A stretch of DNA of 64,000 bases from Rhodospirillales bacterium. GTDB lineage: Bacteria > Pseudomonadota > Alphaproteobacteria > Bin95. Positions 5,172 to 53,975 of the stretch are shown piece by piece. The stretch lies in the NCBI GenBank assembly GCA_008081395.1, contig VMCJ01000011.1, positions 14,264 to 78,263 of the forward strand, read 5' to 3'. The first letter of the stretch is position 1. Each line of letters starts with the position of its first letter. Under the pieces are notes generated by a model that saw only the letters and a list, made by a program, of their open reading frames with translations, searched no databases and was not told the origin of the DNA. The position numbers and the translations under genes are program-made.

Positions 5172-6779
5172 ATGAGCGTTTTCCAGACTAGATTCATCGT
5201 AGCTTTATCATTTGTTTTAACGTGTGGCTCAGCGATTGCCCAGGATGAAGTTAAAACAAGCCAAATTGCAGGAGGTCTTGATGTTGCTGCCGTAGGAGCT
5301 CTTGGCTCTGAAGAGGCAAGAATGCCAAGTAATATATGGTCTGGTTCAAATAGGGCGGTTGTTGCTCAACTGGTGTCTGATTTGCCGGTCCGAATTAGTT
5401 CACCTACGCTTGCAGATGTAACCCGACGTGTATTGGCGGCGGCAGCTGAGCCGCCTGCGGGTGATCAATTAGTTCCTAATTTTGCTCACGTTCGAGCAAA
5501 CGCTTTACTGCGTATTGGGCATGCTGATCTTGCGGCTCGTATAATTTCTGGTCTTCCAAGAGTAGGTCGCCAGGAAGAAAGTGATATTACTCTTATTAAA
5601 GCAAATCTTTTAACTCGAGACGTAGCGGGCTCCTGCGAAGTGGCACGCGAGCGGTTAGGCAGAGCTAAGTCTTCCATATTTGCAAAAGTGAATGCTTTTT
5701 GTGATGTTTTATCTGGCGATATAAGTCGCGCGCATTTTAGTGCCGCTCTTGTAGCTGAACTTGCACCAGAAGATAGTGCCTATTTTGAGCTTCTGGGACT
5801 GCTCTTCCATGAAGGTGCAAAACCAGGTCCTGCAATCGGAAATTTAATTAATCCTTCTCCCTTACACAGAGCTATGCTGGCTACTGCAGGTTTATCGCCC
5901 GAAATCTTACCTGCGGGAGGCCTCCCTGACCCGTTTTCCGAAGATGCAGTTGCGGTTGAGATGCTTTTGGCAACGGATCCAATAGCAAGTCCGGCTTTGC
6001 GGCAAGAAGCTGGCCAGTACTCAATTCTGGCAAATGCTTTGAAGATTGAGGATGCTCGCCAACTTCTTATGGTTGCTGGTTCCCCCGATGCACCTTTTGG
6101 GCTTGCTGAAGTTGTTAGGATATCTAGTGGTTCTGAACGCGCAATTGCGATGGGTCAGTTTTTGGATATAGCAAGAAATTCAGCAGCTGCGGCAACGATG
6201 GCAAGGCTTGCCTTACCAATACTCACTAATCTTCCAACGACCGATATCAGTCCTGAAATAGGTGGAAAAGTTGCTCGCGGTCTCGTCTTAGCTGCGGCAA
6301 TAGATATGGCAAAGGGTTGGTTGGATCAGCTGGAGGCAGCTTCTGCAAGTGAAGAATTGGTCAAGCTTTCACAGGTCCTCGCGATCGCTAGTGGCAGAGA
6401 TTTAAAACCTTTTACCGGGGAAGAGGCTCTTGTCTGGGTAAAAGCAATGGATCCCGCGTCTATAGCTGAAAAAGCCTCTCTGCTTGAGCTATTGCGCCGA
6501 TCAGTTGGCTTGACCACATCACCAGTACTTGAGGCCATTGGATTGGTAACAGACGTAAAATCAACTATCCCACCTTCTGATTTAATGCCCTTAGAGGTGG
6601 CTGGGGCTGAGAAGCTTGTTGGGGAAACCATTTTGCGCGCGGTAAAATTTGTTAGCAACGGAGGTCAGTCAGACCAGCCTTTGCGGCTGGCAGCTGCCTC
6701 AAAAGCTCTGTTTGAGGTTGGACTTATAGATGAAGCGCGTTTGATAGCAGCGGAGGCTGCTATTATGGGTGGCTTGTGA
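5172..6779 (+). CDS. hypothetical Ala/Leu-rich secreted protein
   Basis: N-terminal signal peptide (MSVFQTRFIVALSFVLTCGSAIAQDE). The ORF is 535 aa with no recognisable catalytic motif. It lies between aroK and xerD, as conserved hypotheticals do in other alphaproteobacteria. Confidence 0.5.
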   Translation: MSVFQTRFIVALSFVLTCGSAIAQDEVKTSQIAGGLDVAAVGALGSEEARMPSNIWSGSNRAVVAQLVSDLPVRISSPTLADVTRRVLAAAAEPPAGDQLVPNFAHVRANALLRIGHADLAARIISGLPRVGRQEESDITLIKANLLTRDVAGSCEVARERLGRAKSSIFAKVNAFCDVLSGDISRAHFSAALVAELAPEDSAYFELLGLLFHEGAKPGPAIGNLINPSPLHRAMLATAGLSPEILPAGGLPDPFSEDAVAVEMLLATDPIASPALRQEAGQYSILANALKIEDARQLLMVAGSPDAPFGLAEVVRISSGSERAIAMGQFLDIARNSAAAATMARLALPILTNLPTTDISPEIGGKVARGLVLAAAIDMAKGWLDQLEAASASEELVKLSQVLAIASGRDLKPFTGEEALVWVKAMDPASIAEKASLLELLRRSVGLTTSPVLEAIGLVTDVKSTIPPSDLMPLEVAGAEKLVGETILRAVKFVSNGGQSDQPLRLAAASKALFEVGLIDEARLIAAEAAIMGGL

Positions 6780-7673
6780 GTGTTACCTGGCCATCTTGAA
6801 CAGTTTTTTGAGATGCTTCTTGCGGAGCGGGGAGCAGCTAAAAACACAATAGAGGCCTACCGCCGTGACTTAGTTGCCGTTGCTGAATATCTCCTACCGC
6901 AAGCCTTAGATACTATTACCTCTGTTGGGCTCACAGATTACTTAAGTTCGATTGCTGAGGAGGGAATGAGCCCGCGTACCAGTTCTCGGCGGTTATCAGC
7001 TTTGCGTCAGTATTTTGGGTTTCTCGTTCAAGAAGGCATCCGGACCGACAATCCAACCATTAAAATTGACAGGCCAAAGCTTGGGCGACCCTTGCCAAAA
7101 TATCTAACTGAATTTGAGGTTGAAGCTTTGCTGACGGCCGCACGCTTACAGCGCGGACGACATGGAAGACGGTTAACTTTAATTGTGGAGCTGCTTTACG
7201 CAACCGGGCTGAGGATTTCTGAGCTTGTGACATTACCAGCTAGCGCGGCAAAGGCACAGGATGCGTTGATAATTTATGGTAAAGGAGGAAAAGAGCGCCT
7301 GGTGCCCCTAGGAAGACAGGCAATCTCAGCGATGCAATCTTATGAAAAAGACAGAAACTCGTTTTATATGGGCCAAGGTGACAGCCCGTGGCTGTTTCCA
7401 TCGCGAGGAAAGGGTGGTCATATATCAAGAAGACGAGTTGGGCAGATGCTTGATGAGTTAGCGGTTGAGGCTGGTATCGAGGTTCAAAAAGTCTCACCTC
7501 ATGTCCTGCGTCACGCTTTTGCCACTCATCTTCTGCATAATGGGGCAGATTTGCGAACGGTTCAGGAGCTTCTAGGACATGAAGACCTTTCAACCACAGA
7601 AATATACACTCATATTCTGGACGAAAGAATGAAAAGCCTTGTTCTGCAAAAGCACCCCTTAGCCATTGAGTAA
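6780..7673 (+). CDS. xerD: site-specific tyrosine recombinase XerD
   Basis: The N-terminal LEQFLEMLxAERGAAxNTIxAYRRDL block matches the XerD signature. The C-terminal catalytic HxxRH..Y (HVLRHAFATHLL ... EIYTH) is present. Length is 297 aa. Confidence 0.85.
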   Translation: MLPGHLEQFFEMLLAERGAAKNTIEAYRRDLVAVAEYLLPQALDTITSVGLTDYLSSIAEEGMSPRTSSRRLSALRQYFGFLVQEGIRTDNPTIKIDRPKLGRPLPKYLTEFEVEALLTAARLQRGRHGRRLTLIVELLYATGLRISELVTLPASAAKAQDALIIYGKGGKERLVPLGRQAISAMQSYEKDRNSFYMGQGDSPWLFPSRGKGGHISRRRVGQMLDELAVEAGIEVQKVSPHVLRHAFATHLLHNGADLRTVQELLGHEDLSTTEIYTHILDERMKSLVLQKHPLAIE

Positions 7674-21928: not shown

Positions 21929-22468
21929 TTACCCTTTAGCAGCACTTGGTGTCATTAATAACCGGAATGGCCCAAGCATGGCTAAGGCTATAACAACTTT
22001 GACAAGAAAATCCCCAACCAGAAGAGTAGTCCATGGAACCGAGGTGCCATAGAAAGCCAAGCTGAAAAATAGCGCAGTATCAAGGGCAGAAGCCGCGGTG
22101 GTTGACACCAAAGGAGCTCGCCACCACGAACCAACCCTGAGTTGGTCAAAGATTTTAACATCCAAAAGCTGAGCAGCCATAAAAGCTGTCACCGAAGCCA
22201 AGGCTATTCGTGGACCTGCAAGAATAATTGAGACAACTGCCGCAACGCCGAAGCCAACATACACAACTCGGCGAGCTACTTTTGGTCCGTCCGCACGATT
22301 TATAAGATCAGTTACTAAAAATGTAATTGGGTAAGTCAGTGCGCCCCAGGTTAGCCATTCATTAATTGGATGTTGAACCAAAATATTGGAGGCAACAATA
22401 AGTAATACCATGGCGGCAATCGCAGCAATAAAGCGTTTGTTACCCCAAGTTTTTTGAGAAACAGGCAT
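21929..22468 (-). CDS. YhhQ/VUT family membrane protein (putative queuosine-precursor transporter)
   Basis: Polytopic 179-aa protein whose conserved blocks align with E. coli YhhQ (xSNxLVQ, TWGAxxxPxxFLxTDL, RWWxAPxxSTxxxxxxDTxxFFxxAF). Confidence 0.55.
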   Translation of the reverse strand: MPVSQKTWGNKRFIAAIAAMVLLIVASNILVQHPINEWLTWGALTYPITFLVTDLINRADGPKVARRVVYVGFGVAAVVSIILAGPRIALASVTAFMAAQLLDVKIFDQLRVGSWWRAPLVSTTAASALDTALFFSLAFYGTSVPWTTLLVGDFLVKVVIALAMLGPFRLLMTPSAAKG

Positions 22469-24232: not shown

Positions 24233-24309
24233 TGGCGGGAGTGACGGGGCTCGAACCCGCGACCTCTGGCGTGACAGGCCAGCGCTCTAACCAACTGAGC
24301 TACACCCCC
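24233..24309 (-). tRNA. tRNA-Asp (anticodon GTC)
   Basis: The reverse complement gives GGGGGTGTAGCTCAGTTGGTTAGAGC...CCTGTCACGCCAG...GGTTCGAGCCCCGTCACTCCCGCCA. This has a cloverleaf, a CTGTCAC anticodon loop and an encoded CCA. Confidence 0.85.
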
Positions 24310-24391: not shown

Positions 24392-25168
24392 TTAGGTTAA
24401 GTACACCCCGCCATTTATATGGATTGTTTGCCCGGTGGTGTAGGCTCCCTCTGGCGTACATAACAGTCGAACCATGCCGGCAATCTCATCAACTGTTCCC
24501 ATTCTATTCAGGGGAATGCCACGATCATTCATTCCTGGGCGAGCGCCAGCTGATGCACCGCGGGTTGTATCGATCATCCCTGGTGCGACAGCGTTTACAT
24601 TAATTCCATGCGGAGCCATTTCTCGGGCTAGACCCCTTGTAAAACCTTCCAATCCAGCCTTGGCCGCGTTCACATGGATTCGATTTAGCGTTCCCACGCG
24701 ATTAGAAATGCCACTGAGTGTAACTATTGCGCCACCTTCGCCATTTGCCACCATATGCTTTGCACAGGATTGGCAAACATTAAAAGCACCATCAAGCGCA
24801 ACGCTGATTACGCCTTTCCATTCATCAAAGGGCATATCAAGGAATGGTGTCTGTTTACGATGGGCTGCATTTGATACTGCAATATCTATGCGACCAAATT
24901 TTTCCATTGTAGCTTCAACCATAGCATCAACGGCAGCGCGATCGGTGACATCGGCTAGGAAAGGCAAAGCTTGGATGCCGTAGGTTTGCTCAAGCATCGC
25001 GGCTGTTTCATCTACTGCAGCCTGATCAAAGCGTCCATTTACAACAATATTGGCGCCAACAGCTGCTAGATGTTCCGCTATTCGCTGACCAATATTTTTT
25101 CCAGCGCCTGTAATTACAGCAGTTTTGCCCGCTAGAACTTTTGCTCCTGGGTCGATCATCAAGGTCAC
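24392..25168 (-). CDS. SDR family oxidoreductase
   Basis: TGAGKNIG Rossmann motif and a YxxxK active site are present. Length is 258 aa. Confidence 0.8.
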   Translation of the reverse strand: MTLMIDPGAKVLAGKTAVITGAGKNIGQRIAEHLAAVGANIVVNGRFDQAAVDETAAMLEQTYGIQALPFLADVTDRAAVDAMVEATMEKFGRIDIAVSNAAHRKQTPFLDMPFDEWKGVISVALDGAFNVCQSCAKHMVANGEGGAIVTLSGISNRVGTLNRIHVNAAKAGLEGFTRGLAREMAPHGINVNAVAPGMIDTTRGASAGARPGMNDRGIPLNRMGTVDEIAGMVRLLCTPEGAYTTGQTIHINGGVYLT

Positions 25169-25210: not shown

Positions 25211-25286
25211 TGGTGGGCGATGACAGACTCGAACTGCCGACATCCTCGGTGTAAACGAGGCGCTCTACCAACTGAGCTAATCGCCC
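25211..25286 (-). tRNA. tRNA-Val (anticodon TAC)
   Basis: The reverse complement gives GGGCGATTAGCTCAGTTGGTAGAGCGCCTCGTTTACACCGAGG...GGTTCGAGTCTGTCATCGCCCACC, with a TTTACAC anticodon loop. Confidence 0.85.
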
Positions 25287-44230: not shown

Positions 44231-44902
44231 CTAGGGATTCCATAATTCTAAGTCTGCAACGGATGCCCGAATTTTAGTTTTTGTATCGTCGCTATCTGCA
44301 GAAATTGCTAAACCAACAAGCGTTGTGATTGGTGCACCAAAAGCAGTTAAAAAGTCTTGGTCTAAATTTACAGACTCTTGAAATCTTCCCAAGCCAGAGG
44401 GGCGTAGGATAATCGTTTTACCCTGATTACCCAGGTACGGCGTTAACAAAAAATCACCTCGTTTATGAGCTCCTCCAAAAACGTACATCAATACTCTGAT
44501 GGATTTATTGTCGAGCATTGAAAGCATTGACTTATGTTGCAGGGTTGGTGCGTCTTTTGCCTCCGCGAATACAAAGTACATTGCAAGATTGCGATCATCG
44601 CTTCCTTTAATAGTTAGATCCGTTGGGGGAACAGTTTTAGTTACCTCCCATGTCCATGACGCTTTTTTGGTCGATCCACTTTTGCCCTCTGTCGCAGACC
44701 AAATCATCGACACGGTTTTGTCAGATTCAACCAACACCTGGTTCATATTGGTTATGTATTTATTTGATGAGAACACTGAAAATTTTTGATGGGTCCAGCC
44801 ATCAAAATTGATCGACTTTGCTAATGCTGGATTGATGATAAATACCAACATGGCTAGCAGGCACCAAAGTATCTTCCCCGTTGAAAACAATGAATTATTC
44901 AT
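44231..44902 (-). CDS. hypothetical secreted protein in a low-GC stretch
   Basis: Signal peptide (LWCLLAMLVFIINPALA). Length is 223 aa. Local GC (~40%) is visibly lower than in flanking genes. Confidence 0.45.
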   Translation of the reverse strand: MNNSLFSTGKILWCLLAMLVFIINPALAKSINFDGWTHQKFSVFSSNKYITNMNQVLVESDKTVSMIWSATEGKSGSTKKASWTWEVTKTVPPTDLTIKGSDDRNLAMYFVFAEAKDAPTLQHKSMLSMLDNKSIRVLMYVFGGAHKRGDFLLTPYLGNQGKTIILRPSGLGRFQESVNLDQDFLTAFGAPITTLVGLAISADSDDTKTKIRASVADLELWNP

Positions 44903-44954: not shown

Positions 44955-45722
44955 TCATTCCATTACAAGGCCACCATCTACATAAATCGTTTGTCCAGTG
45001 ATGAAAGCCGACCAGGGTGAAGCTAGAAAAAGTACTGGCCCCGCTATGTCTTCGGGCTTCGCTATACGTCGCAATGGGGTGGCAGAGATAATATCTTCTT
45101 TGATATTTTCTCGCACCCTTTCGCTCGCTTTAGTTGGGTAAACTAACCCAGGGGCAACAGTGTTGACGCGTATTCCAAGGGGGCCAAGTTCAGCTGCTAA
45201 TGTGCGCGTAAACCCTACTAGGGCGGCCTTTGCAGTTGCATAGTCGTGGTATGGGACGACGGGTCTCGCAATCAGATCGGTGGCAATGTTAATGATGGAT
45301 CCGTTGGCGCGGGTTAACATGTTTGGAACCGCTGCTTGCACCATATTATGAGCGGCCTGCACTGCACCCTCAAATTGGCTCTGGTAATCTTGCCAATCTA
45401 GGTCCCAATGAAGTTTCCTCCGCTCTGGGTCAAACTCATATGGTCGAAAAGCGTTGTTAACTAGAACGTCGATCTTCCCAAAGGCTTCAATGGTCTCGGA
45501 GACTAAGTTTGTTGCACCGTCTTTATTTGTAACATCAGAGCAGATTGCTAATGCTACTCCGCCATTTGTCTCGCAGGCTGCAACAGTTGCCGCCGCGGTT
45601 TCGGCATTGGTTAAATAATTTACACCAACGTTGGCCCCTTCGCGCGCAAAAGCTTGAGCAATTGCCGATCCTATCCCGCGACCAGCACCAGTGACGAGCA
45701 CACTTTTTCCGCTAAAATTCAT
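44955..45722 (-). CDS. SDR family oxidoreductase, last enzyme of the TPP-riboswitch operon
   Basis: TGAGRGIG Rossmann motif and a YxxxK active site are present. It starts 5 nt after the binding-protein gene. Confidence 0.8.
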   Translation of the reverse strand: MNFSGKSVLVTGAGRGIGSAIAQAFAREGANVGVNYLTNAETAAATVAACETNGGVALAICSDVTNKDGATNLVSETIEAFGKIDVLVNNAFRPYEFDPERRKLHWDLDWQDYQSQFEGAVQAAHNMVQAAVPNMLTRANGSIINIATDLIARPVVPYHDYATAKAALVGFTRTLAAELGPLGIRVNTVAPGLVYPTKASERVRENIKEDIISATPLRRIAKPEDIAGPVLFLASPWSAFITGQTIYVDGGLVME

Positions 45723-45727
45723 AGTTA

Positions 45728-46702
45728 TTATTTCGGTATGAGATCGCTGAAGATAACCTTTTTCATCTCTAATTTAGATTTAATTAGTCCTAGTTCTAAG
45801 AAAGTGTCAGCGCCTTTTTGCAAGAGCTCGACGTCAAAATGCCCAAGCCCTTTAGCTTTAGTCGTTTGTGATTGCGCAGAGAGATTTCGGAGTTTGATGA
45901 TTGCAAGGTTTACCTTTTCGTTCCGCCCGTTAATTGAGCGCGTTATAGCGATTTTTGCCGCTTCTTCCGGCTCAGAAATCATCCACGCAGCACTTTTTTG
46001 ATATGCTTTTAAAAATCGGCGGAGTAGGGGTTTTTGATCCCTATAATGATTGCGGCGAACGACAAACATATCGCTTGGTACATTAAGGCTATCTCTGACC
46101 TCTATTACATCGACCTCACCAATGCCCTTTAGTTTAGCAACGTAAAGGCCAGTGTCGGTTGCTGCAGTGGCATCCACTTGGCCTTGCATTACTGGTGCAA
46201 AGTTAAGCAGACCAGTTACCTTAATTTTAACATCAGTCTCTTTAAGCCCCACCTGATGCAGTAGGACCTGAAGATTTTGCCGAGTTCCGCTGGAAAGGCT
46301 GTATACCCCGATAGTCTTCCCTTTTAAGTCTGCCGGTGTCTTGATACCCCGACCAACCGGTGAAACCACGTTAAAAACATTTTGGGGGTAGATATTGTAA
46401 ATGGCTACTAAGTCCTCGCCTTTATCGAGAGCTTGATAGAAAGAGGCTGGATCTGTGAACGCTACATCCGCTGCTCCTGAGAGCATATTAGCAATTGCGG
46501 ACCCCCCACCTGCGCCTGGGACGTAGCCAAGGTCTATTCCTTCTGCTTTAAAAAACCCTTTGTCAGGTTCGGCAAGTATATTGGTGATTTCGCTAATTGG
46601 TTTACTCCAACCAGCAATACGTACCTTTTCAAGAGTTGCAGACATGGCTGCAGAGCTGGTGAAAGAGAACGCTAATATCGCTGCCAATAGAGAATGTTTC
46701 AT
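45728..46702 (-). CDS. ABC transporter substrate-binding protein, NMT1/THI5-like (ThiY-like)
   Basis: Signal peptide plus an NMT1/SsuA/TauA-type periplasmic binding fold. A TPP riboswitch heads the operon. Confidence 0.7.
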   Translation of the reverse strand: MKHSLLAAILAFSFTSSAAMSATLEKVRIAGWSKPISEITNILAEPDKGFFKAEGIDLGYVPGAGGGSAIANMLSGAADVAFTDPASFYQALDKGEDLVAIYNIYPQNVFNVVSPVGRGIKTPADLKGKTIGVYSLSSGTRQNLQVLLHQVGLKETDVKIKVTGLLNFAPVMQGQVDATAATDTGLYVAKLKGIGEVDVIEVRDSLNVPSDMFVVRRNHYRDQKPLLRRFLKAYQKSAAWMISEPEEAAKIAITRSINGRNEKVNLAIIKLRNLSAQSQTTKAKGLGHFDVELLQKGADTFLELGLIKSKLEMKKVIFSDLIPK

Positions 46703-47457
46703 TAGAAGGTGCCTTTCTGACGGCTTTGTAAAATCCGCCTCTCAATTACAACTATAATTTGATAAAAAAAGAGGCCCATAAGGGTGATCAGAATAAAAAG
46801 AGCGAAAATTAAGGTTGTATCCATCATCCCTTGAGCAGCAATGATGCTAGCTCCTAGCCCCTTGCTGCCTGCAATAAATTCGCCAACTACTGCGCCTACC
46901 AAAGCGAGAACTATCGCAACTCGAATTCCAGCTAGAATTACGGGCATGCTGGTTGGAAGCTTCAGTCGCAATAAGGTCTGAAGTCTGGTCGCACCCAGCA
47001 TGCGAAAGAGATCTCTTTTCTCCTGCGGAACATTTGATAAACCCGTTATTGTGTTTTCGAGCAGTGGAAAGAAACAGATTAGAGCTGTGATAATGACCGT
47101 AGAGGTCATCCCAAAGCCGAACCAGATTATGAAAATTGGTCCAAGAGCTAGTTTTGGCACTACCTGACTGGCAAGCACGTAAGGCCAAAGGAGACGGCGA
47201 AGGCGCGGCATTTCGGCAAGTATCGCGCCAATAAGGAAACCGATGACGCACCCTAGGGCAAATCCCAACAGAGTCTCAGCACCAGTTACCCAGAGATGTT
47301 GCCAAAGAGCACCAGATACAAGGCCATCCCAAAGTGTTTCTGTAACTGCTGAAGGCGCAGGAAGTACCAGAGGCGAAACTCCGGAGAGCAACACACCCAG
47401 CTCCCAGGCGATCAGTACCGCTACGAGCAGAGCAGAGCTGGATATATGCCTCAACAC
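46702..47457 (-). CDS. ABC transporter permease, NitT/TauT family (ThiX-like)
   Basis: 6-TM permease with an EAA-like loop. It overlaps both neighbouring genes. Confidence 0.8.
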   Translation of the reverse strand: MLRHISSSALLVAVLIAWELGVLLSGVSPLVLPAPSAVTETLWDGLVSGALWQHLWVTGAETLLGFALGCVIGFLIGAILAEMPRLRRLLWPYVLASQVVPKLALGPIFIIWFGFGMTSTVIITALICFFPLLENTITGLSNVPQEKRDLFRMLGATRLQTLLRLKLPTSMPVILAGIRVAIVLALVGAVVGEFIAGSKGLGASIIAAQGMMDTTLIFALFILITLMGLFFYQIIVVIERRILQSRQKGTF

Positions 47458-48215
47458 TGTCCCGCCCCTAATAACATTGCCGATCTGACTTTCCGGCAGA
47501 GTTTGGAAAAGTGGGCTTCATATCGTAAGTCTGAGGCTCGTGGTCTAGGAAGGTCTATTTCGACTTCGTGGGTAATAAGCCCTCCCTCCATAACTAAGAT
47601 TTTGTCTCCCAGGTATGCTGCTTCTCCAATATCGTGGGTGACAAAAATTACAGTCGTGCCGCTGGCTTCAACCAGATTGATTAATACGTCTTGGAGATCC
47701 TCACGGGTTAATGCATCAAGAGCAGCGAATGGTTCGTCCATCATTAGGACGGGGGGGGAGGTAACAAGCGATCGGGCAAGCGCTGCCCGGCTTTGTTGCC
47801 CGCCCGAAAGTTGTTCTGGATAACGTTGAGCAAGATGCTTGATGCCAGCGAGTTCCAGCAGTTCGAGCGCAAATTTTTCATCCGATTTATTTACAGAGCC
47901 TTTAAGACTTATAGGTAGTAAGACGTTATCAATTACCGTTAACCATTCTAGAAGGGATGGCGTTTGAAATACAAAACCAACATCTGAAGATGGCCCATCG
48001 ACAGGGGTATCGCTAATTTTAATTGAGCCGGACGATGGTGCCAGCAGGCCAGCAGCCACTTTTAAACATGTAGTTTTTCCGCATCCACTCCTGCCGACCA
48101 AGCAATAAAACCCGCCTTTGGGAATGTTAAAGTCAATTCCCAAAAGACCTTTTGATCCATTAGAAAAAGTATAGCTAACTTTTGATAGGCTAATTGAGGT
48201 TGGGTTAGTCTGCAT
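47451..48215 (-). CDS. ABC transporter ATP-binding protein (ThiZ-like)
   Basis: Walker A GRSGCGKTT, the LSGGQQ signature and Walker B MMDEPF are present. Confidence 0.85.
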   Translation of the reverse strand: MQTNPTSISLSKVSYTFSNGSKGLLGIDFNIPKGGFYCLVGRSGCGKTTCLKVAAGLLAPSSGSIKISDTPVDGPSSDVGFVFQTPSLLEWLTVIDNVLLPISLKGSVNKSDEKFALELLELAGIKHLAQRYPEQLSGGQQSRAALARSLVTSPPVLMMDEPFAALDALTREDLQDVLINLVEASGTTVIFVTHDIGEAAYLGDKILVMEGGLITHEVEIDLPRPRASDLRYEAHFSKLCRKVRSAMLLGAGQC

Positions 48216-49656
48216 AACTGGCCAAATCTTCAGCAGCAGTTTCAGCGCGAGCCTCTATTTCGGTTATTCTTACTAGGTCAAGCAAATTGAAACGTCCATC
48301 GTGGTGCCAGCCGGCTTCTGGTGAGGTCATATCGCCAAGAGCAGTAACACGGGTCACCCCGACTTCACCTAACATGGAGGCAAGGTTGAAAAGACGTTCT
48401 GGTGTCGCAGAGATTGCCGCCGTTTGGATCAATGTTTTGTAGGGCTTGGATAATATTGGCGTTTCTTCAAGGTCGTCGACGGCAACAATTCTGATAGTAC
48501 GATTAAGACCACTTGGCCTCAGTGCACGGTCTTGCAGTTGAATTGAGACAGTCCAATTACCGTTGCATGGTTCTACGACTTTACCACCCAGACGGGTCTC
48601 TTCTGCCATACGCCATTCTACTAAGCTAGATGCCTCGGCAAGAGAGAGGGGGCGCCGCGGGAATTTTTCCTCATAACTTGCAAGTGATTGGGCTATGTAA
48701 GTTCCAAAAGTTTCTGGTGAAATTGCACCACCTTTTTCGACGAAGAAAACATGCGGTGAGTAACACCCCTGCTGGTCATATCGTACAACGTCGTATGCAG
48801 CCTTTCTTGCAGTTGAAGAGGCGCGGGAGGGATCAAGGGCTTCTCTCCCAATTAGGCCAAAGCTGATTTTATGGCCGTGAGCTAGAAAGCGCGTCGATGC
48901 TGGGGCTTGCGCTGCTAGCGCTGCGATCGCCGTGTCTCCACCGTATGCAAGTGCAACATCTGCTTCCCTAAACAGTCCGGCCTCAAGTTCTGTATTGCCG
49001 CCCTGCCACCAAACCAGTGCTATCGTCTTCGCGAGTTCAGGATCGGTTTCCGCTAAAACGTCATGAAACCACCCTGCAAAAAAAGGCTCAGCTGTCGCAA
49101 CCTTTCCAACGCTTGCGGCCTTCACTAACAGTCCAGCAATCAGTGTCCAAAGAGGCAGACCAGGAACATTTCCTGCCCAAACATGTGCTAAGAGATCAGG
49201 TCCAAAGGCACGACCAAAGCCTCCTTTAACAAGTGGCTGGAATTTGTCGAGAATACCTGGGTTTGGAAAGTCTTCGGTAATGAAACGCTGAAGTTGCGGT
49301 TTTCTGAACGTTTTGAGATAGCCAGTAAGGCCAATCCGCACCATTTCTTCGTCATAGCCAGTCACTATTGGCAGCAAATGCTCCATTTTTTTTCGAACTG
49401 GGTGGCTTCTGTCGAGAAGACGGGCCACTGTCTGGTCAATAGCAGTAAGAACCCTATCGACAGGCCAAGTTTTGACACTGTTTCTCGCGTTGAGCCGAAC
49501 TTTGGAGGCGATGATACTCAGATCTGCGGACTGCAAATTTGGCGTTAATGCAATTAAGCTCTTTTCACCATCTCCGCCATATTGCCTGGGCTCCCAATGA
49601 ATCCTCTCTGGATCAAGCCCATGAAGGCGGCCTACGTATTCAACGTCTGTTGTCAA
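48205..49656 (-). CDS. LuxC-family acyl-CoA reductase (aldehyde-forming)
   Basis: 483-aa protein whose architecture and conserved blocks resemble LuxC (aldehyde dehydrogenase-superfamily fold with a catalytic Cys region). It overlaps the LuxE-like gene by 4 nt. Confidence 0.65.
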   Translation of the reverse strand: MTTDVEYVGRLHGLDPERIHWEPRQYGGDGEKSLIALTPNLQSADLSIIASKVRLNARNSVKTWPVDRVLTAIDQTVARLLDRSHPVRKKMEHLLPIVTGYDEEMVRIGLTGYLKTFRKPQLQRFITEDFPNPGILDKFQPLVKGGFGRAFGPDLLAHVWAGNVPGLPLWTLIAGLLVKAASVGKVATAEPFFAGWFHDVLAETDPELAKTIALVWWQGGNTELEAGLFREADVALAYGGDTAIAALAAQAPASTRFLAHGHKISFGLIGREALDPSRASSTARKAAYDVVRYDQQGCYSPHVFFVEKGGAISPETFGTYIAQSLASYEEKFPRRPLSLAEASSLVEWRMAEETRLGGKVVEPCNGNWTVSIQLQDRALRPSGLNRTIRIVAVDDLEETPILSKPYKTLIQTAAISATPERLFNLASMLGEVGVTRVTALGDMTSPEAGWHHDGRFNLLDLVRITEIEARAETAAEDLASYAD

Positions 49657-50735
49657 TTTGCAGCCGCCGATATCAAAAATTCATCGACCGCCATTGAACA
49701 CCCCTGAGCCTCGGCACCACTAACGCGCCCATGGAGCATGAAACCTTCATCCACCTCAACCCCTGCATCTTCTGTCAATATAGTGGTTACAATATTGAAG
49801 TGGGCGAGGTCTGTGTGCGCAAGAACACCAGTCGTGCCCTTGGGGAGGGATGAGCCTGTGAGAGGGTCAACGACACGTGTTTTTATCCAATGGGGGCCAG
49901 ATTTAACAGACGGACAAACAGCATTACCATTGTCATAGAATTGGGTGCTGAGCTCAGTCATTCCATACATATTGATGCAGTTTGCGCGAGAGACCCCAAA
50001 AGCATTTTGAAGGGCATCATAAAATGTATCCAACTCCAACTCTCGGGATTGGCCTTTAAAACCTCCAGTATCGAGAAGGCGGCTGCCAGGCGGTAGTTGG
50101 AAGCGTCTTCCCTGACGTTCCATTTCATCTAAAACATGGACGAAGCTGAAACTGGCGCCCAGCAAACCGTATGATACACCATTTTCTTCTGCATCTTCCA
50201 AACTGTGGAATAAGCGTTCGTAATCGATGCCATTACTTCTAACAAAGTGGGAGCTTCCCTCAGAGCCAAAGTATTGCTTGGCGAGTTCAAGATAATGGGC
50301 GAGCGAGGAATTCGGCATAGCCACAGGTGGCGGAAAAAGAATGCCAATTTTTAGTTTTTCTCTATTGCCCATGAATCGTTCGAGAAAATTTTGACGCATT
50401 GATGCGTTATATACGGCCAAGGTTGGATGGTAGCTTTTCCCTCTTTTTCCACCCTGTGTTGTGCCACTTGTCATAAAGGTGGCTTCTGCACTTGTTGGAG
50501 AGGAGCATGTAAGGTCAAGCGTCTTGAAGGCGCTGATGGGTACAGCGGGAATATCTGCCCAGTGCCGCACCGTTTTGGGTGTTTTTCCTCTTGCTAAGCA
50601 AAACTTTTTGAACGGCAGGTTATGTTCAAATTGATATGCAAAAATTGAAAGCGCCATCTGATCGAAATCGGCTTCGACAGCATTTTTATTTTCGATGAAG
50701 GTTAGGAGTTTGCTAACAACTTCAGCCTCATCCAT
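49653..50735 (-). CDS. LuxE-family acyl-protein synthetase (adenylate-forming, ANL-like)
   Basis: TSGTT AMP-binding P-loop (MTSGTTQGGKRGKSY), about 360 aa in length, and LuxE-like conserved blocks. It is the first gene after the riboswitch. Confidence 0.65.
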   Translation of the reverse strand: MDEAEVVSKLLTFIENKNAVEADFDQMALSIFAYQFEHNLPFKKFCLARGKTPKTVRHWADIPAVPISAFKTLDLTCSSPTSAEATFMTSGTTQGGKRGKSYHPTLAVYNASMRQNFLERFMGNREKLKIGILFPPPVAMPNSSLAHYLELAKQYFGSEGSSHFVRSNGIDYERLFHSLEDAEENGVSYGLLGASFSFVHVLDEMERQGRRFQLPPGSRLLDTGGFKGQSRELELDTFYDALQNAFGVSRANCINMYGMTELSTQFYDNGNAVCPSVKSGPHWIKTRVVDPLTGSSLPKGTTGVLAHTDLAHFNIVTTILTEDAGVEVDEGFMLHGRVSGAEAQGCSMAVDEFLISAAAN

Positions 50736-50789
50736 CGCGCTATCTCCACTCAGAGGATGACACTAGGAGAGGGATAGGCCGCATCTTTA

Positions 50790-50930
50790 GAGTCCCATTC
50801 CCTCCGCCGGTATAATCCGGTTCAGGTTCAAAGGGTCATCGTGCTGACACTCATTTTAGTCAACGACCAATGGTGTCTATCGATATCTCAGCCCTTAAAG
50901 CAGGGCCCCCCTACGGTAAGTCCCAGACGC
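50790..50930 (-). promoter_or_regulatory. TPP (thiamine pyrophosphate) riboswitch, THI-box
   Basis: The minus-strand RNA reads ...GGGGGGCCCUGCUUUAAGGGCUGAGA-(variable hairpin)-ACCCUUUGAACCUGAACCGGAUUAUACCGGCGGAGGGAA. Compare the E. coli thiM aptamer GGGGUGCCC...GGCUGAGA...ACCCGUAUCACCUGAUCUGGAUAAUGCCAGCGUAGGGAA. The aptamer ends ~55 nt upstream of the luxE-like ATG. A CUCUCC element could sequester the GGAGAU Shine-Dalgarno. Confidence 0.85.
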
Positions 50931-51062
50931 TAAGTGGAAAACTGCTCTCGCGTCAAGATTGATATGATATTTTTTGCCGGCCTTATTTTCGAGTTTATCA
51001 CAAAAGTAAAAAAATACATTTGCGGTTGAAGAGGCTAATTATGCTCTCTTATCTCTGGCTTA

Positions 51063-51911
51063 TTAGGAAATTAAAACTCCTTTGGCGTCGTCTGACGCGA
51101 TTGTACAACGCCAGTGAACACGACGCTCTTCGATGGGATAATCTGCTGTTGCAGAATGGAGTGTGCAACGATTGTCCCAGGTAACCAGATCACCGACTTC
51201 CCACTTGTGTCTATATTCTGCCCCCGGTGCAATTTGATATTGTTCTAGTTCTTGAAAAAGATCCTTCGCTTCTTGATCAGATAAGCCAACGATCCGCAGC
51301 AAATGTGTAGGATTGAAGTAAAGAGTTTTTTGTCCAGTCTCACTATGAGTGCGAATTAAGGGGTGTCGCACTGGTGGAAGATTTCTGTCCTCTGGCTCAA
51401 GCAGTTCCGAACTTTTTCGAGATACACCCCCATAAACATAATCTGCTTCCAAGTTTTGAATTCTCTTCTTAAGGGTATTTGGTAAGGAGTTATAAGCCAT
51501 AGCCATATTGGCAAAGAGCGTGTCTCCACCTCTTGATGGGATCTCCAAGCCAAAAAGCTGTGTGGCTTTACACCCCTTTGGATCCCAAGGACCATCTGTG
51601 TGCCATCCGTGTCCGCGCGTATATACCGGCCTATTTACAGTCCCATCAGCATTGCGAGCATTGGTGCCCATGACCGTCAATTCGGGATGATTTGGATGAC
51701 GTGATTTTTTTACTAAGTGTGGAAAAATTTCGCCAAAGCGTCGGCCATAGCTGAGAAAGTCTTCAATTGTAAGTTCTTGACCACGAATGCAGATCACACC
51801 AGCTTCGAGCCAGGCTCTATAGATCAGCTGAAATTCACTGTCGCTTATGCTTCGAATATCTATACCGGTGACGATTGCCCCACAGCCAGGACTGGCCTTT
51901 TCAATATGCAC
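51063..51911 (-). CDS. TauD/TfdA family Fe(II)/2-oxoglutarate dioxygenase
   Basis: HxD...H facial triad (HWHTDGPWD ... H) and TauD-like blocks are present. The likely GTG start at 51911/51914 sits immediately after AGGAGGAGG, which overlaps the upstream stop. The ORF-track TTG start at 51950 would overlap the LLM gene by 29 nt. Confidence 0.75.
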   Translation of the reverse strand: MHIEKASPGCGAIVTGIDIRSISDSEFQLIYRAWLEAGVICIRGQELTIEDFLSYGRRFGEIFPHLVKKSRHPNHPELTVMGTNARNADGTVNRPVYTRGHGWHTDGPWDPKGCKATQLFGLEIPSRGGDTLFANMAMAYNSLPNTLKKRIQNLEADYVYGGVSRKSSELLEPEDRNLPPVRHPLIRTHSETGQKTLYFNPTHLLRIVGLSDQEAKDLFQELEQYQIAPGAEYRHKWEVGDLVTWDNRCTLHSATADYPIEERRVHWRCTIASDDAKGVLIS

Positions 51912-51921
51912 CACCCTCCTC

Positions 51922-52917
51922 CTACTGCAGCTCGCTTTTGATTTCACCAATTAGTTCAATTGCCTTGAGTACATCCTTTTGGGCTAATCCAGGCCACTGC
52001 AGCCTAACTATCAGGTGATTGACCCCAAGTTTTTGGTTAAGCCATTGGATCCGATCTTTCACCATAGCCTTGTCGCCAATAATGAAACGAGCTGCTTGGA
52101 AGTCATCAAAAGCCTCTTCGAAAGGTTGTCCTGCAACATTGGCGCTACCCCACGACGCGTAAGCTGAATACTTGTAAATTAGGGGTTCCTTGGCGATAGC
52201 AAAAGCCTGTTTAGCCGTAGTAGCGACGAAGCATTCCCGTATCATTGGTTTTTCAGTGGGAGGGCCAAGACCTTTTGCTTCGCGTTCTTCATCATAAATC
52301 GCGTAATTGCGTTCCAACTGATCCCAATCAGCAGATGGGCTAACTAGCCAGGCATCAGCTATTCGAGCAGCACGACGTATTGCGGGTTCTACGCTTGCTC
52401 CGATCCAAAGAGGCAGGGAGGATCCATTTTTGGGTCTAACAGAGGCGCCAACGTCTGTTAGCTGAAAGAACTGGCCCGTATGAGAAATGCGGTCCTCTGA
52501 CCAGAGGCGCCGAATGACGTTGATTGCTTCTGTCGTCCGAGCGGCACGCTTACTAAAATTGACCCCAAAGGCCTCGAATTCTGCCTCACGATATCCTAGG
52601 CCAACGGCAAGAATATAACCACCTCTGCAGATCCAATCGAGTGTTGCTGACTCTTCGGCCACTTGAACAGGGTTAGTCATACCTAGGAGCCATATACCGG
52701 GCCCCATTCGCATATTTCCCGCTTCTGCAGCAAGTCTTGCTAACAGAATATTAGCCTGAAACATGCGAAGAGGCTGCGTCAGGTAGTGGTGTGGCGCTAT
52801 GATAGAGGAAAAACCACAATCGCGAGCAGTACGCACCTGAGCCAACAAATTTTCAGTTGCATCATCTAAAGGCGCGTCATCAGAAAATTGTGGATTTATG
52901 TAGAGGCCAAAGTCCAT
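51922..52917 (-). CDS. LLM-class (luciferase-like) flavin-dependent monooxygenase
   Basis: TIM-barrel LLM blocks with an MDFGLYINPQF start. The internal ATG at 52917 avoids overlap with the amidohydrolase gene. Length is ~331 aa. Confidence 0.7.
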   Translation of the reverse strand: MDFGLYINPQFSDDAPLDDATENLLAQVRTARDCGFSSIIAPHHYLTQPLRMFQANILLARLAAEAGNMRMGPGIWLLGMTNPVQVAEESATLDWICRGGYILAVGLGYREAEFEAFGVNFSKRAARTTEAINVIRRLWSEDRISHTGQFFQLTDVGASVRPKNGSSLPLWIGASVEPAIRRAARIADAWLVSPSADWDQLERNYAIYDEEREAKGLGPPTEKPMIRECFVATTAKQAFAIAKEPLIYKYSAYASWGSANVAGQPFEEAFDDFQAARFIIGDKAMVKDRIQWLNQKLGVNHLIVRLQWPGLAQKDVLKAIELIGEIKSELQ

Positions 52918-52940
52918 TTGACATCTCTCTCTTGCAGAAA

Positions 52941-53975
52941 TCAGTTTATTTTGTAGGTGCGAACCGCCGTGTCGTGGAATAGCTGACGTTTTTCGTCGAC
53001 GCTGTAATCCAGTGTAAGGTGCTTGAAAGAATTCCAAAGAGTGTTGTAGCTGCAGCTGGTCATATCTACTGGAAAGTTTGACTCGAACATACATCGACTG
53101 GTGCCAAAGTGTTCAATGGTATGTTCGTACCAACGTCGAGTTGCCTGCATTAAAGTTTCGCTAGTTGGTGGTGTGTTATGATTTTCCCAGCCAAAGCCGT
53201 TGATATCCATATTGATGCCACCAAGTTTTGCTAACACATTTTGACAGGTTGCTAGATCGGCTATTTCTTTCTGCCAGATTGGAAAAATGTCGTCAGCTTT
53301 ACCCGCATAAGGTCCAATTCCAAGAGGGCCTCCAAAGTGATTTAGAATGATAGTTGTATCTGGAAATGCCCGTGCTAGTGCGGTTACTTCTTTAAGTTGT
53401 GTGTGATAGCACCAGGCTTCAAAAGTCATATTTCTGGGAGCTAATTCAGCAAACCCTTCTCTGAATTTTGCATTTGAAAATCGGTCCGGCCCGTTTGCAT
53501 CTTTGGCGCTGCGAATCGAATTGTCAGCATCCCACTGGCCCTGGCAGCGAATTCCACGAAATCGCCCTCCGCCTGCTTGAACATGGGCATCAAGAACTTC
53601 GCCAACAGCACTGCCAATATTTAAATTGGCTGAGCCAACGATAGCTGCTGCAACCCTGCACTTCCCATACAAGCCAGAAGCACTCATCGCCGCGATACCA
53701 TTTACGAACTCTGTTTCTCCAACGCACTTCAGGTGCTCTGGACCACTCGCCCTGTACATCGCTGAGCACTCAATGAACACAGTGCTGACAATGTTATGAC
53801 CAGAATTTAAGTCCGACAAAATTTCATCAAGAAGATATTTCGGCGCTACACGGTCATGGCGAAACTCCCACAAGTGATGATGAGGATCACAGATCGGCAA
53901 TTCCGGCTCCAAAGTATCTTCGATGACTTTGTCTAACCATGGCTTATTTTTTGAAGGAGTCATCATGCTATCCAT
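52941..53975 (-). CDS. amidohydrolase-2 (PF04909-type) metal-dependent TIM-barrel hydrolase/decarboxylase
   Basis: N-terminal DPHHHLW metal-binding motif and an Amidohydro_2-type C-terminal region. Length is 344 aa. Confidence 0.75.
   Translation of the reverse strand: MDSMMTPSKNKPWLDKVIEDTLEPELPICDPHHHLWEFRHDRVAPKYLLDEILSDLNSGHNIVSTVFIECSAMYRASGPEHLKCVGETEFVNGIAAMSASGLYGKCRVAAAIVGSANLNIGSAVGEVLDAHVQAGGGRFRGIRCQGQWDADNSIRSAKDANGPDRFSNAKFREGFAELAPRNMTFEAWCYHTQLKEVTALARAFPDTTIILNHFGGPLGIGPYAGKADDIFPIWQKEIADLATCQNVLAKLGGINMDINGFGWENHNTPPTSETLMQATRRWYEHTIEHFGTSRCMFESNFPVDMTSCSYNTLWNSFKHLTLDYSVDEKRQLFHDTAVRTYKIN

Follow-up and report, generated by a model that had tools for sequence, protein, structure and literature searches.

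Previous studies indicate that OarX, a FabG-like short-chain dehydrogenase/reductase (SDR), has been known since 2002 to follow thiamine pyrophosphate (TPP) riboswitches and clusters with thi genes and fmnO (PMC11223231). The oarX gene lies mostly with thiazole genes and "occasionally" with acyl-CoA synthetase (ACS) genes, and its product has been proposed to reduce oxidised thiamine products from carboxyl to alcohol, for which activation and reduction via an aldehyde are required (PMC11223231). For the carboxylates that arise by oxidation of thiamine, which have been described as orphan degradation products, no metabolic fate is known (PMC11223231). Here, we describe a TPP riboswitch on the minus strand of a 64,000-nt stretch of a Rhodospirillales genome (contig VMCJ01000011.1, positions 14,264 to 78,263; the whole stretch is called the window below), which heads an operon encoding a LuxE-like and a LuxC-like enzyme, an ATP-binding cassette (ABC) importer, and an SDR that we assign by sequence to the OarX family. 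On balance, we favor the reading that this riboswitch represses, at plentiful TPP, an operon for the reductive salvage of an oxidised thiamine fragment.

We found no publication linking LuxC- or LuxE-type enzymes, or the full gene set, to thiamine or TPP riboswitches. The initial annotation of this DNA, made from the sequence alone, had stated that LuxE and LuxC enzymes were, as far as known, not linked to thiamine; this stands for the LuxC-type enzyme and for the full set, but the last gene of the operon is an oarX, and an ACS neighbor of oarX had already been hinted at (PMC11223231). This neighbor is most likely the LuxE-like gene, because the Prokaryotic Genome Annotation Pipeline (PGAP) names LuxE-like orthologues "long-chain fatty acid--CoA ligase" or "acyl-CoA synthetase". 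The LuxE/LuxC-OarX module is uncharacterised, with prior work giving only that hint, and what is new here is the cross-phylum module itself, the LuxC-type reductase within it, its three importer variants, and the tie between its SDR and OarX.

A TPP Aptamer Precedes the LuxE-like Gene

We scanned the whole window with cmscan against all 4227 Rfam families and obtained three matches, RF00059 (TPP) and two tRNAs, with no other riboswitch among them. The RF00059 match lies at 50922-50782 on the minus strand and reaches 65.1 bits, above the gathering score of 54.3 (E 1.6e-10). The full model (positions 1-105) is aligned, and the optional P3a stem contains 39 inserted nt. The parts of the element are as follows.

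50782..50922, minus strand: TPP aptamer (THI element, RF00059), from cmscan with the full model
within 50782..50922, minus strand: aptamer P1 helix, CCGU/AUGG
50891-50886, minus strand: pyrimidine-sensor CUGAGA
50885-50837, minus strand: P3a insertion
50836-50798, minus strand: aptamer 3' half, ACCC...GGAGGGAA

Read 5' to 3', the leader comprises GGGGGGCCCUGCUUUAAGGGCUGAGA, a variable hairpin of ~49 nt (50885-50837), and ACCCUUUGAACCUGAACCGGAUUAUACCGGCGGAGGGAA (50836-50798). Both cores, CUGAGA of the pyrimidine sensor and ACCUGA...GCG.AGGGA of the pyrophosphate sensor, are aligned to the consensus and are invariant in 11 orthologous leaders. These leaders have the TPP fold as their consensus, and 12 of its 26 pairs, mainly in P3 and P3a, show compensatory changes. 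A family-specific covariance model gives the window aptamer 117.8 bits. The aptamer lies on the coding strand, 46 nt upstream of the LuxE-like AUG, between a TauD-like stop (51063) and the LuxE-like ATG (50735). The match is far above chance and makes the window aptamer a true, if routine, addition to RF00059. The initial annotation had reported a near-textbook THI-box on the minus strand at 50790-50930 and had proposed a search with RF00059; the sequence is as it described, the search yields the full-model match on that strand, and the location was right apart from an immaterial shift of ~8 nt. As the match is on the minus strand, in the leader of the LuxE-like gene, it is luxE, and not the upstream tauD and luciferase-like monooxygenase (LLM) genes, that would stand under the riboswitch.

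Six Genes Form One Operon behind the Leader

Downstream of the aptamer, six genes follow on the minus strand, in the order LuxE-like, LuxC-like, ABC ATPase, permease, NMT1/THI5-type binding protein, and SDR.

49653..50735, minus strand: LuxE-like acyl-adenylating / acyl-protein synthetase, 360 aa (PF04443, 64.3 bits)
48205..49656, minus strand: LuxC-like acyl (thioester) reductase, 483 aa (PF05893, 279.6 bits), with a TTG start and a 4-nt overlap with the LuxE stop
47451..48215, minus strand: ABC transporter ATPase, 254 aa (PF00005, 102.5 bits), its start overlapping the LuxC-like stop by 11 nt
46702..47457, minus strand: ABC transporter permease, 251 aa (PF00528, 103.2 bits), with a 7-nt overlap with the ATPase gene
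45728..46702, minus strand: periplasmic substrate-binding protein, NMT1/THI5-like, 324 aa (PF09084, 156.1 bits)
44955..45722, minus strand: OarX-family SDR, 255 aa (PF13561, 198.9 bits), predicted to catalyse the aldehyde-to-alcohol step

The successive junctions are overlaps of 4, 11, 7, and 1 nt and a gap of 5 nt, and since the genes overlap or abut in this way, the six of them form one operon, which is probably translationally coupled. The gene order and the Pfam matches thus agree with the luxE-luxC-ABC-SDR operon that had been proposed behind the leader.

The only Protein Data Bank (PDB) match for both the LuxE-like and the LuxC-like proteins is the LuxC-LuxE complex 7xc6 (E 1.6e-17 and 2.3e-15, respectively), the former matching 7xc6_E and the latter 7xc6_A. 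In the LuxC-like protein, YDQQGC298 aligns to YDQQAC285 of LuxC and AGNVP to AGNVP (7xc6_A), and N163 and C298 are kept in at least 97% of 80 orthologues. In the LuxE-like protein, the TSGTT (89-93) and YGMTE (257-261) motifs and Cys346 near the C-terminus are kept in at least 97% of 78 orthologues. A true lux operon was rejected, as the NCBIfam equivalog scores are far below their cut-offs (70.9 against 550 for the LuxE-like protein and 85.1 against 750 for the LuxC-like protein), and luxAB luciferase and luxD acyl-transferase genes are missing both from the window and from all 80 loci compared below. The two proteins are thus members of the Pfam superfamilies only. Judged from these homologies, the pair is predicted to work like the lux fatty-acid reductase without being a lux system.

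The SDR Belongs by Sequence to the OarX Family

Every complete orthologous locus encodes the SDR. With the window SDR as query, tblastn gave orthologue-level matches on plasmids without LuxC: a Mesobacillus plasmid with a TPP riboswitch of 82 bits followed by the SDR and an LLM flavin oxidoreductase, which is the oarX-fmnO arrangement; an Exiguobacterium plasmid with a TPP riboswitch of 77 bits and then the SDR; and a Rhizobium plasmid with a TPP riboswitch of 64 bits followed by thiM, thiE, thiD, and the SDR. The window SDR shares 43-44% identity with the SDRs of the riboswitch-oarX-fmnO and riboswitch-thiM-thiE-thiD arrangements, compared with 34% with E. coli FabG, while the SDRs linked to LuxE/LuxC make up a group of their own with 45-66% identity. 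Two signatures are common to all riboswitch-linked SDRs and absent from FabG, namely a six-residue insertion after the NNA motif (xxYxFDPxxRK) and a PVVPYH(D/E)Y motif. The higher identity than to FabG, together with these two signatures, places the window SDR, as far as sequence can tell, within the OarX family.

On the Mesobacillus foraminis plasmid, the FmnO partner (L094, 5829-7136) is an LLM-class flavin oxidoreductase of 435 aa. Some LLM monooxygenases of the ~435-aa size class cleave C-N bonds and release aldehydes. As pure speculation, FmnO might act on a thiamine fragment of the amine type and so provide the aldehyde for OarX.

The Riboswitch-Module Link Is Conserved

The LuxC-like protein has more than 2000 close homologues, and its relatives are encoded in 552 species-representative genomes. 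We compared the best 80 loci of these 552 genomes, 78 with upstream sequence and two without, drawn from Bosea, Azospirillum, Roseovarius, Polaromonas, Pantoea, Asaia, and many alphaproteobacterial metagenome-assembled genomes (MAGs). The order LuxE-LuxC-ATPase-permease-binding protein-SDR is found in 57 complete and 3 truncated loci, and 15 of the 80, including all Pantoea, have LuxE-LuxC-SDR without a transporter. In 10 of 12 diverse loci, the Rfam TPP model reached or exceeded its gathering score; from the aptamers of the diverse loci, a family covariance model was built and then run on all loci. It found a strong aptamer on the coding strand directly upstream of the LuxE-like gene in 66 of the 78 loci and a divergent, weak one in eight, all Polaromonas, and the same leader placement (same strand, upstream of the LuxE-like gene) recurs in 74 other loci. 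The four loci left have no aptamer, which counts against the reading that we favor; the module is evidently expressible without riboswitch control.

The aptamer-less operons are L009 (Cohaesibacter), L016, L032, and L048; in L032 and L048, the intergenic region is only ~100 nt long and holds a TTGACT-type promoter-like sequence. The Polaromonas loci are L051, L059, L060, L069, L070, L075, L077, and L085. The aptamer of L060 (5703-5818) scores 50.2 bits in Rfam, over the full model and below the gathering score. The Polaromonas aptamers have a long P3 insert, a compensatory change in P4 from CCU/AGG to CUU/AAG, and AAGAAG or AAGGAG in place of AGGGA, and their distance to the LuxE-like start is much longer, at 62-137 nt.

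We clustered 1175 flanking open reading frames (ORFs) and found no other conserved neighbor common to more than 10 loci, the recurrent ones being a dienelactone hydrolase, a CoA ligase, and an unclassified TIM-barrel protein. With no common flanking genes, the conserved unit is therefore the riboswitch with the LuxE-like, LuxC-like, and SDR genes, the importer being optional. This unit is kept across Alpha-, Beta-, and Gammaproteobacteria and Firmicutes. In Azospirillum lipoferum 4B (plasmid/chromid records), the Rfam TPP model scores 59.6 bits, and in Pantoea dispersa 71.7 bits; in Priestia megaterium, it scores 49.0 bits, just under the gathering score.

The Firmicute versions carry a xanthine/uracil-family permease in place of the ABC importer. 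In the case of Lactiplantibacillus plantarum, a TPP riboswitch of 67.6 bits is accompanied by a xanthine/uracil-family permease, an "acyl-CoA synthetase", an acyl-CoA reductase, and the SDR. In the case of Niallia taxi, plasmid pMEGANia (NZ_CP102590.1, L093) holds tandem TPP aptamers at 2540-2648 and 2727-2836 (85 and 72.9 bits), ~80 nt apart, followed by ThiW, a xanthine/uracil-family permease, and the LuxE-like, LuxC-like, and SDR genes; this ThiW (PF09512, 189 bits) is a predicted energy-coupling factor (ECF) component for a thiazole precursor. A tandem arrangement is uncommon among TPP riboswitches and implies that the dose response is steeper.

The whole L. plantarum cassette thus sits on a small, 10-kb plasmid (NZ_CP035118.1, L092) together with a "Bacillus-plasmid" small RNA (RF01691, 10035-10095, 74.2 bits), and a Levilactobacillus brevis plasmid bears LuxC-like and SDR genes at the same identity. 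A 4-kb contig from an Actinomycetes-labelled MAG (JAEWJX010000040.1, L041) carries a Bosea-like riboswitch of 122 bits in the family model and LuxE/LuxC-like genes ~55-61% identical to those of the window, the result of a binning error or of horizontal transfer.

The Predicted Binding-Protein Fold Resembles That of Thiamine-Precursor Importers

The binding protein is the best conserved protein of the operon, with orthologues that are 74-90% identical. Its AlphaFold2 model (predicted local distance difference test, pLDDT, of 78.9) is closest in the PDB to the thiamin-bound protein 4nmy of C. difficile (template modeling, TM, score 0.76/0.82), followed by ThiY (3ix1; TM 0.74/0.79), which binds N-formyl-4-amino-5-aminomethyl-2-methylpyrimidine (FAMP), with SsuA and TauA behind. 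The best NCBIfam matches of the ATPase, of the SaoA, Ssu, Tau, and nitrate types, are all under their cut-offs. The NMT1/THI5 fold is typical of thiamine-precursor importers and matches the normal cargo of TPP riboswitches, and the ABC transporter is not incidental to the operon.

A Reductive Salvage Pathway Is Proposed

In the pathway that we favor, low TPP would allow the operon to be expressed, and a thiamine-derived carboxylic acid would be imported by the NMT1/THI5-type ABC system here and by the xanthine/uracil-family permease in Firmicutes, with no importer in Pantoea. The LuxE-like enzyme would adenylate the acid with ATP, and the acyl group would be passed, probably via Cys346 of this enzyme, as a thioester to Cys298 of the LuxC-like reductase, which would release the aldehyde with NAD(P)H. 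The OarX SDR would then reduce the aldehyde to an alcohol that could re-enter thiamine synthesis. Candidate conversions are pyrimidine carboxylic acid to hydroxymethylpyrimidine (HMP), thiazole acetic acid to hydroxyethylthiazole (HET), and thiamin acetic acid to thiamin. Besides the window riboswitch, the links to thiamine are the structural matches of the binding protein, ThiW in the Niallia operon, and the presence of the SDR family in riboswitch-controlled thiM-thiE-thiD-SDR and SDR-LLM operons, and the catalytic residues of all three enzymes are conserved.

Several points weigh against this proposal. The proposed ligand is deduced entirely from family membership and context, and the evidence does not discriminate between a pyrimidine and a thiazole. 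The ThiY-like binding protein and the nucleobase-type permease point to the former; the ThiW gene of Niallia, the leading position of thiM in the Rhizobium operon, and the predominance of thiazole genes among the cluster partners of oarX (PMC11223231) point to the latter. The identity of the binding protein to ThiY and to 4nmy is only ~18-20%, its sequence match to ThiY (E 2e-7) is no better than that to SsuA (8e-7), and NMT1-family binding proteins also serve purine-related transport (PMC7373994). The alignment of the LuxE-like protein to 7xc6 ends before Cys346, a putative counterpart of the LuxE acylation site. Finally, five oxidation products, including all three carboxylates, gave no growth of C. 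glutamicum (PMC11223231); the riboswitch operon of the strain used consists of oarX-fmnO only, and our model offers a reason for the negative feeding, in that this strain may lack the acid-activating LuxE/LuxC steps.

It seems rather unlikely, but deserves consideration, that the module is thiamine-related and serves another derivative, or an unrecognised HMP or thiazole biosynthesis with a reduced carboxylate intermediate, the importer bringing in a different precursor. After the negative C. glutamicum feeding, the authors of the OarX study themselves suggested a further-modified substrate (PMC11223231). In the 15 loci without an importer, the substrate could be made inside the cell, and OarX also occurs without LuxE/LuxC beside thiM-thiE-thiD or an LLM monooxygenase, so that its substrate need not come from a carboxylate. 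However, the predicted chemistry of LuxE and LuxC, from the 7xc6 homology, the conserved Cys, and the adenylation motifs, leads specifically from carboxylate to aldehyde, the OFF-switch logic and the dedicated importers fit scavenging, and no steps are missing in canonical thiamine biosynthesis (PMC11223231).

An ON state at low cofactor would suit equally well a TPP-sparing bypass, in which the operon supplies aldehydes or alcohols that normally come from TPP-dependent 2-keto-acid decarboxylases, comparable to cobalamin riboswitches and B12-independent isozymes. LuxE/LuxC-type enzymes classically act on non-thiamine acids, and in sequence, the binding protein resembles sulfonate binders nearly as closely as it does ThiY. 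We nevertheless consider such a bypass improbable: the top two structures for the binding-protein model are a thiamin-bound and a thiamine-pyrimidine-bound one, the SDR family lies inside thiM-thiE-thiD operons, ThiW is part of the Niallia operon, and, to our knowledge, there is no precedent for TPP riboswitches controlling bypass enzymes. It is highly improbable that the operon serves to detoxify, and not to salvage, a harmful antimetabolite or breakdown product of thiamine, for an importer would be counter-productive and expression at low TPP fits acquisition; some thiamine degradation products are toxic and have no known detoxification route, but the products tested were not toxic at physiological levels (PMC11223231).

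Beyond the window, the salvage proposal extends to a wider one that we put forward more tentatively: a widespread route may exist in which a LuxE/LuxC-type carboxylate reductase and OarX revive oxidised thiamine fragments to HMP, HET, or thiamin via dedicated importers, with OarX as the shared final aldehyde reductase that has other partners, such as FmnO, elsewhere.

If true, this salvage route would exist in at least several hundred bacterial species of two phyla and would account for the 20-year OarX puzzle as well as for the failed feeding of C. glutamicum. OarX, which was flagged in 2002 and still had no reaction after a dedicated study in 2024, would be given one, and a riboswitch-controlled carboxylate-to-alcohol module would give the orphan carboxylates a metabolic fate. 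The range of LuxE/LuxC-type reductases would widen beyond fatty acids and bioluminescence to include cofactor repair. The majority of bacteria in water and soil need external vitamin B1 or its fragments, and the fragments that can be recycled shape B1 cycling in communities. The operon occurs in tractable cultured hosts, namely Azospirillum brasilense, A. lipoferum, Pantoea dispersa, Bosea, Roseovarius litoreus, Priestia megaterium, and Lactiplantibacillus plantarum, and the hypothesis is therefore directly testable with commercially available compounds.

Proposed Control of the Operon by the Riboswitch

Between the aptamer and the LuxE-like gene, two further elements were delineated.

50766..50778, minus strand: pyrimidine tract CCUAUCCCUCUCC, candidate switching (anti-Shine-Dalgarno) strand
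50733..50747, minus strand: ribosome-binding region, with the Shine-Dalgarno sequence (SD) GGAGAU at 50747-50742 and the AUG of the LuxE-like gene at 50735-50733

No intrinsic terminator was found between the aptamer and the AUG, where the longest U-run is 1. The free minimum-free-energy fold has an open SD and a helix between the tract 50778-50766 and the aptamer 3' strand GGAGGGAAUGG. The computed probability that the SD is unpaired is 0.85 in the free leader compared with 0.09 with the aptamer enforced (in a constraint whose P4 is off by one base), and for the -14..-5 window, the values are 0.68 and 0.29. The free fold has -72.6 kcal/mol and the aptamer-folded one -70.8 kcal/mol, a gap of 1.8 kcal/mol, and the duplex energies of the tract are -16.1 kcal/mol to the aptamer 3' strand and -15.5 kcal/mol to the ribosome-binding site (RBS). 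Against 200 shuffled linkers, the dual complementarity of the tract has z(sum) = -2.15.

These values suggest a switch in which, in the absence of TPP, the tract 50778-50766 would pair with the aptamer 3' strand and the SD would be free; on TPP binding, the aptamer would lock, the RBS region would be paired, and translation of the first gene would be blocked. Given the overlapping reading frames, the downstream genes would follow via translational coupling. This leader probably works as a translational OFF switch. The comparison with other leaders lends this mode no support: the test for a dual-complementary linker was null over 65 leaders (mean z ~0, Wilcoxon p 0.5-0.85), among which the window leader alone stands out; RBS accessibility showed no consistent change over 74 leaders, with start codons that are uncertain where called automatically in high-GC genomes; and the leader L087, an 83% relative with few changes to compare, breaks some of the predicted SD pairs, while the contig of L088, a 68% relative, does not include the leader. 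In one leader subgroup, a conserved helix competes for the aptamer 3' strand (a single compensatory pair), and a small SD hairpin is seen. The OFF switch of the initial annotation is thus plausible for the window leader, with its missing terminator, its loss of SD accessibility, and its z score, but is not supported family-wide.

It is possible, if on the unlikely side, that a real riboswitch acts here mainly via Rho-dependent premature termination or mRNA decay and not via SD sequestration. The SD-sequestering helix has no comparative support, and the linkers of many relatives are 75-100 nt long, GC-rich, and without a consistent anti-SD. Yet in the window, the gap between aptamer and AUG is only 46 nt, the SD lies within the region of changing pairing, and neither an intrinsic terminator nor a U-run longer than 1 is seen; SD sequestration is, moreover, reportedly the usual mode of proteobacterial TPP riboswitches (Rodionov, 2002).

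A possible promoter was noted further upstream.

50964..50992, minus strand: possible sigma-70-type promoter, TCGAAA, 17 nt, TATCAT (consensus scan, 9/12 matches)

It lies ~35-40 nt upstream of the aptamer, in a region with no more sites of this kind than expected from shuffled sequence.

Surroundings of the Operon in the Window

One more gene follows the SDR on the same strand.

44231..44902, minus strand: DUF3047 protein with a signal peptide (PF11249, 96.8 bits)

Between the SDR and this gene lie 52 nt without a convincing terminator; the terminator-like hairpin at 44807-44784 was rejected because it lies inside the DUF3047 coding region, as the 223-aa form carries the signal peptide. DUF3047 is found only in the same-species MAGs L001-L006 and is absent from the other 80 loci. 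It was rejected as a member of the conserved unit because it is species-specific, and it may be co-transcribed with the riboswitch operon in this species only.

Directly upstream of the riboswitch, a cluster of amidohydrolase_2, luciferase-like monooxygenase, and TauD-family dioxygenase genes occupies 51063-53975 on the minus strand. Its LLM is closest to LLM families of the F420 type and has no relationship to FmnO (E 0.013), and the cluster was rejected as a part of the system because it is upstream of the riboswitch and kept only in same-species MAGs. The remaining window is an ordinary proteobacterial chromosome (bc1 complex, glmS/glmU, dapB, aroB/aroK, xerD, and others), and among its ~45 annotated ORFs, no other thiamine genes were found. 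A foreign origin of the operon by base composition was rejected, with a uniform GC content of 0.46-0.51.

Elsewhere in the window, two tRNA genes on the minus strand (24236-24309 and 25214-25286; 72.3 and 69.2 bits) flank a 258-aa ORF (24392-25168). On the plus strand, within 5172-7673, a 535-aa ORF with no Pfam match at E <= 1e-8 is directly upstream of a XerD-type tyrosine recombinase (6780-7673). At 21929-22468 (minus strand), a gene for Vut_1 (PF02592, a YhhQ-like putative vitamin uptake transporter) adjoins an RraA-like gene, and no Rfam-detectable riboswitch precedes Vut_1.

Comparison with Known Systems

Like the E. coli thiM-type TPP riboswitch, the window aptamer matches the model over its full length, with the CUGAGA and ACCUGA...GCG.AGGGA cores and helices P1-P5, and it lies in a coding-strand 5' leader without a terminator and with the SD within 40 nt. 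It differs from the thiM-type switch in its 39-nt P3a insertion and its short P1 (4 bp including a G-U), in an SD-sequestering helix without covariation support, and in its cargo, a LuxE/LuxC-type reductase operon instead of classic thi biosynthesis genes. The window binding protein shares the NMT1/THI5 fold with ThiY (3ix1) of ThiXYZ and with 4nmy and is likewise under TPP-riboswitch control, whereas the window transporter genes sit within an enzyme operon, and the identity to these proteins is only 18-20%.

The bioluminescence LuxC-LuxE pair (7xc6) and the window pair belong to the same two protein families, encoded by adjacent, overlapping genes. The window pair retains the LuxC active-site Cys and AGNVP motif as well as the LuxE adenylation motifs. 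The same chemistry is predicted from these sequences, in which acid, ATP, and NADPH would give the aldehyde. In contrast to the lux system, the predicted substrate in the window is a small heteroaromatic acid instead of myristate, and the aldehyde is predicted to be further reduced by the SDR instead of being used by luciferase. Carboxylic acid reductases (CARs) are single polypeptides with adenylation, thiolation, and reduction (A-T-R) domains that reduce a free acid to an aldehyde with ATP and NADPH, often followed by an aldehyde reductase. By analogy only, the window module is predicted to reduce an acid to an aldehyde with the same two cofactors, but it consists of two separate LuxE/LuxC-type proteins with a predicted Cys-to-Cys acyl transfer and has no phosphopantetheine carrier domain.

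Compared with the published OarX (PMC11223231), the window OarX is the last of six genes that include a LuxC-type reductase and an importer, neither of which is in that paper, and its operon is without FmnO, the upstream LLM being unrelated to it. Like the published OarX, the window SDR is FabG-like and is located downstream of a TPP riboswitch, and it carries the insertion and the PVVPYH(D/E)Y motif of the SDRs in oarX-fmnO and thiM-thiE-thiD-oarX operons.

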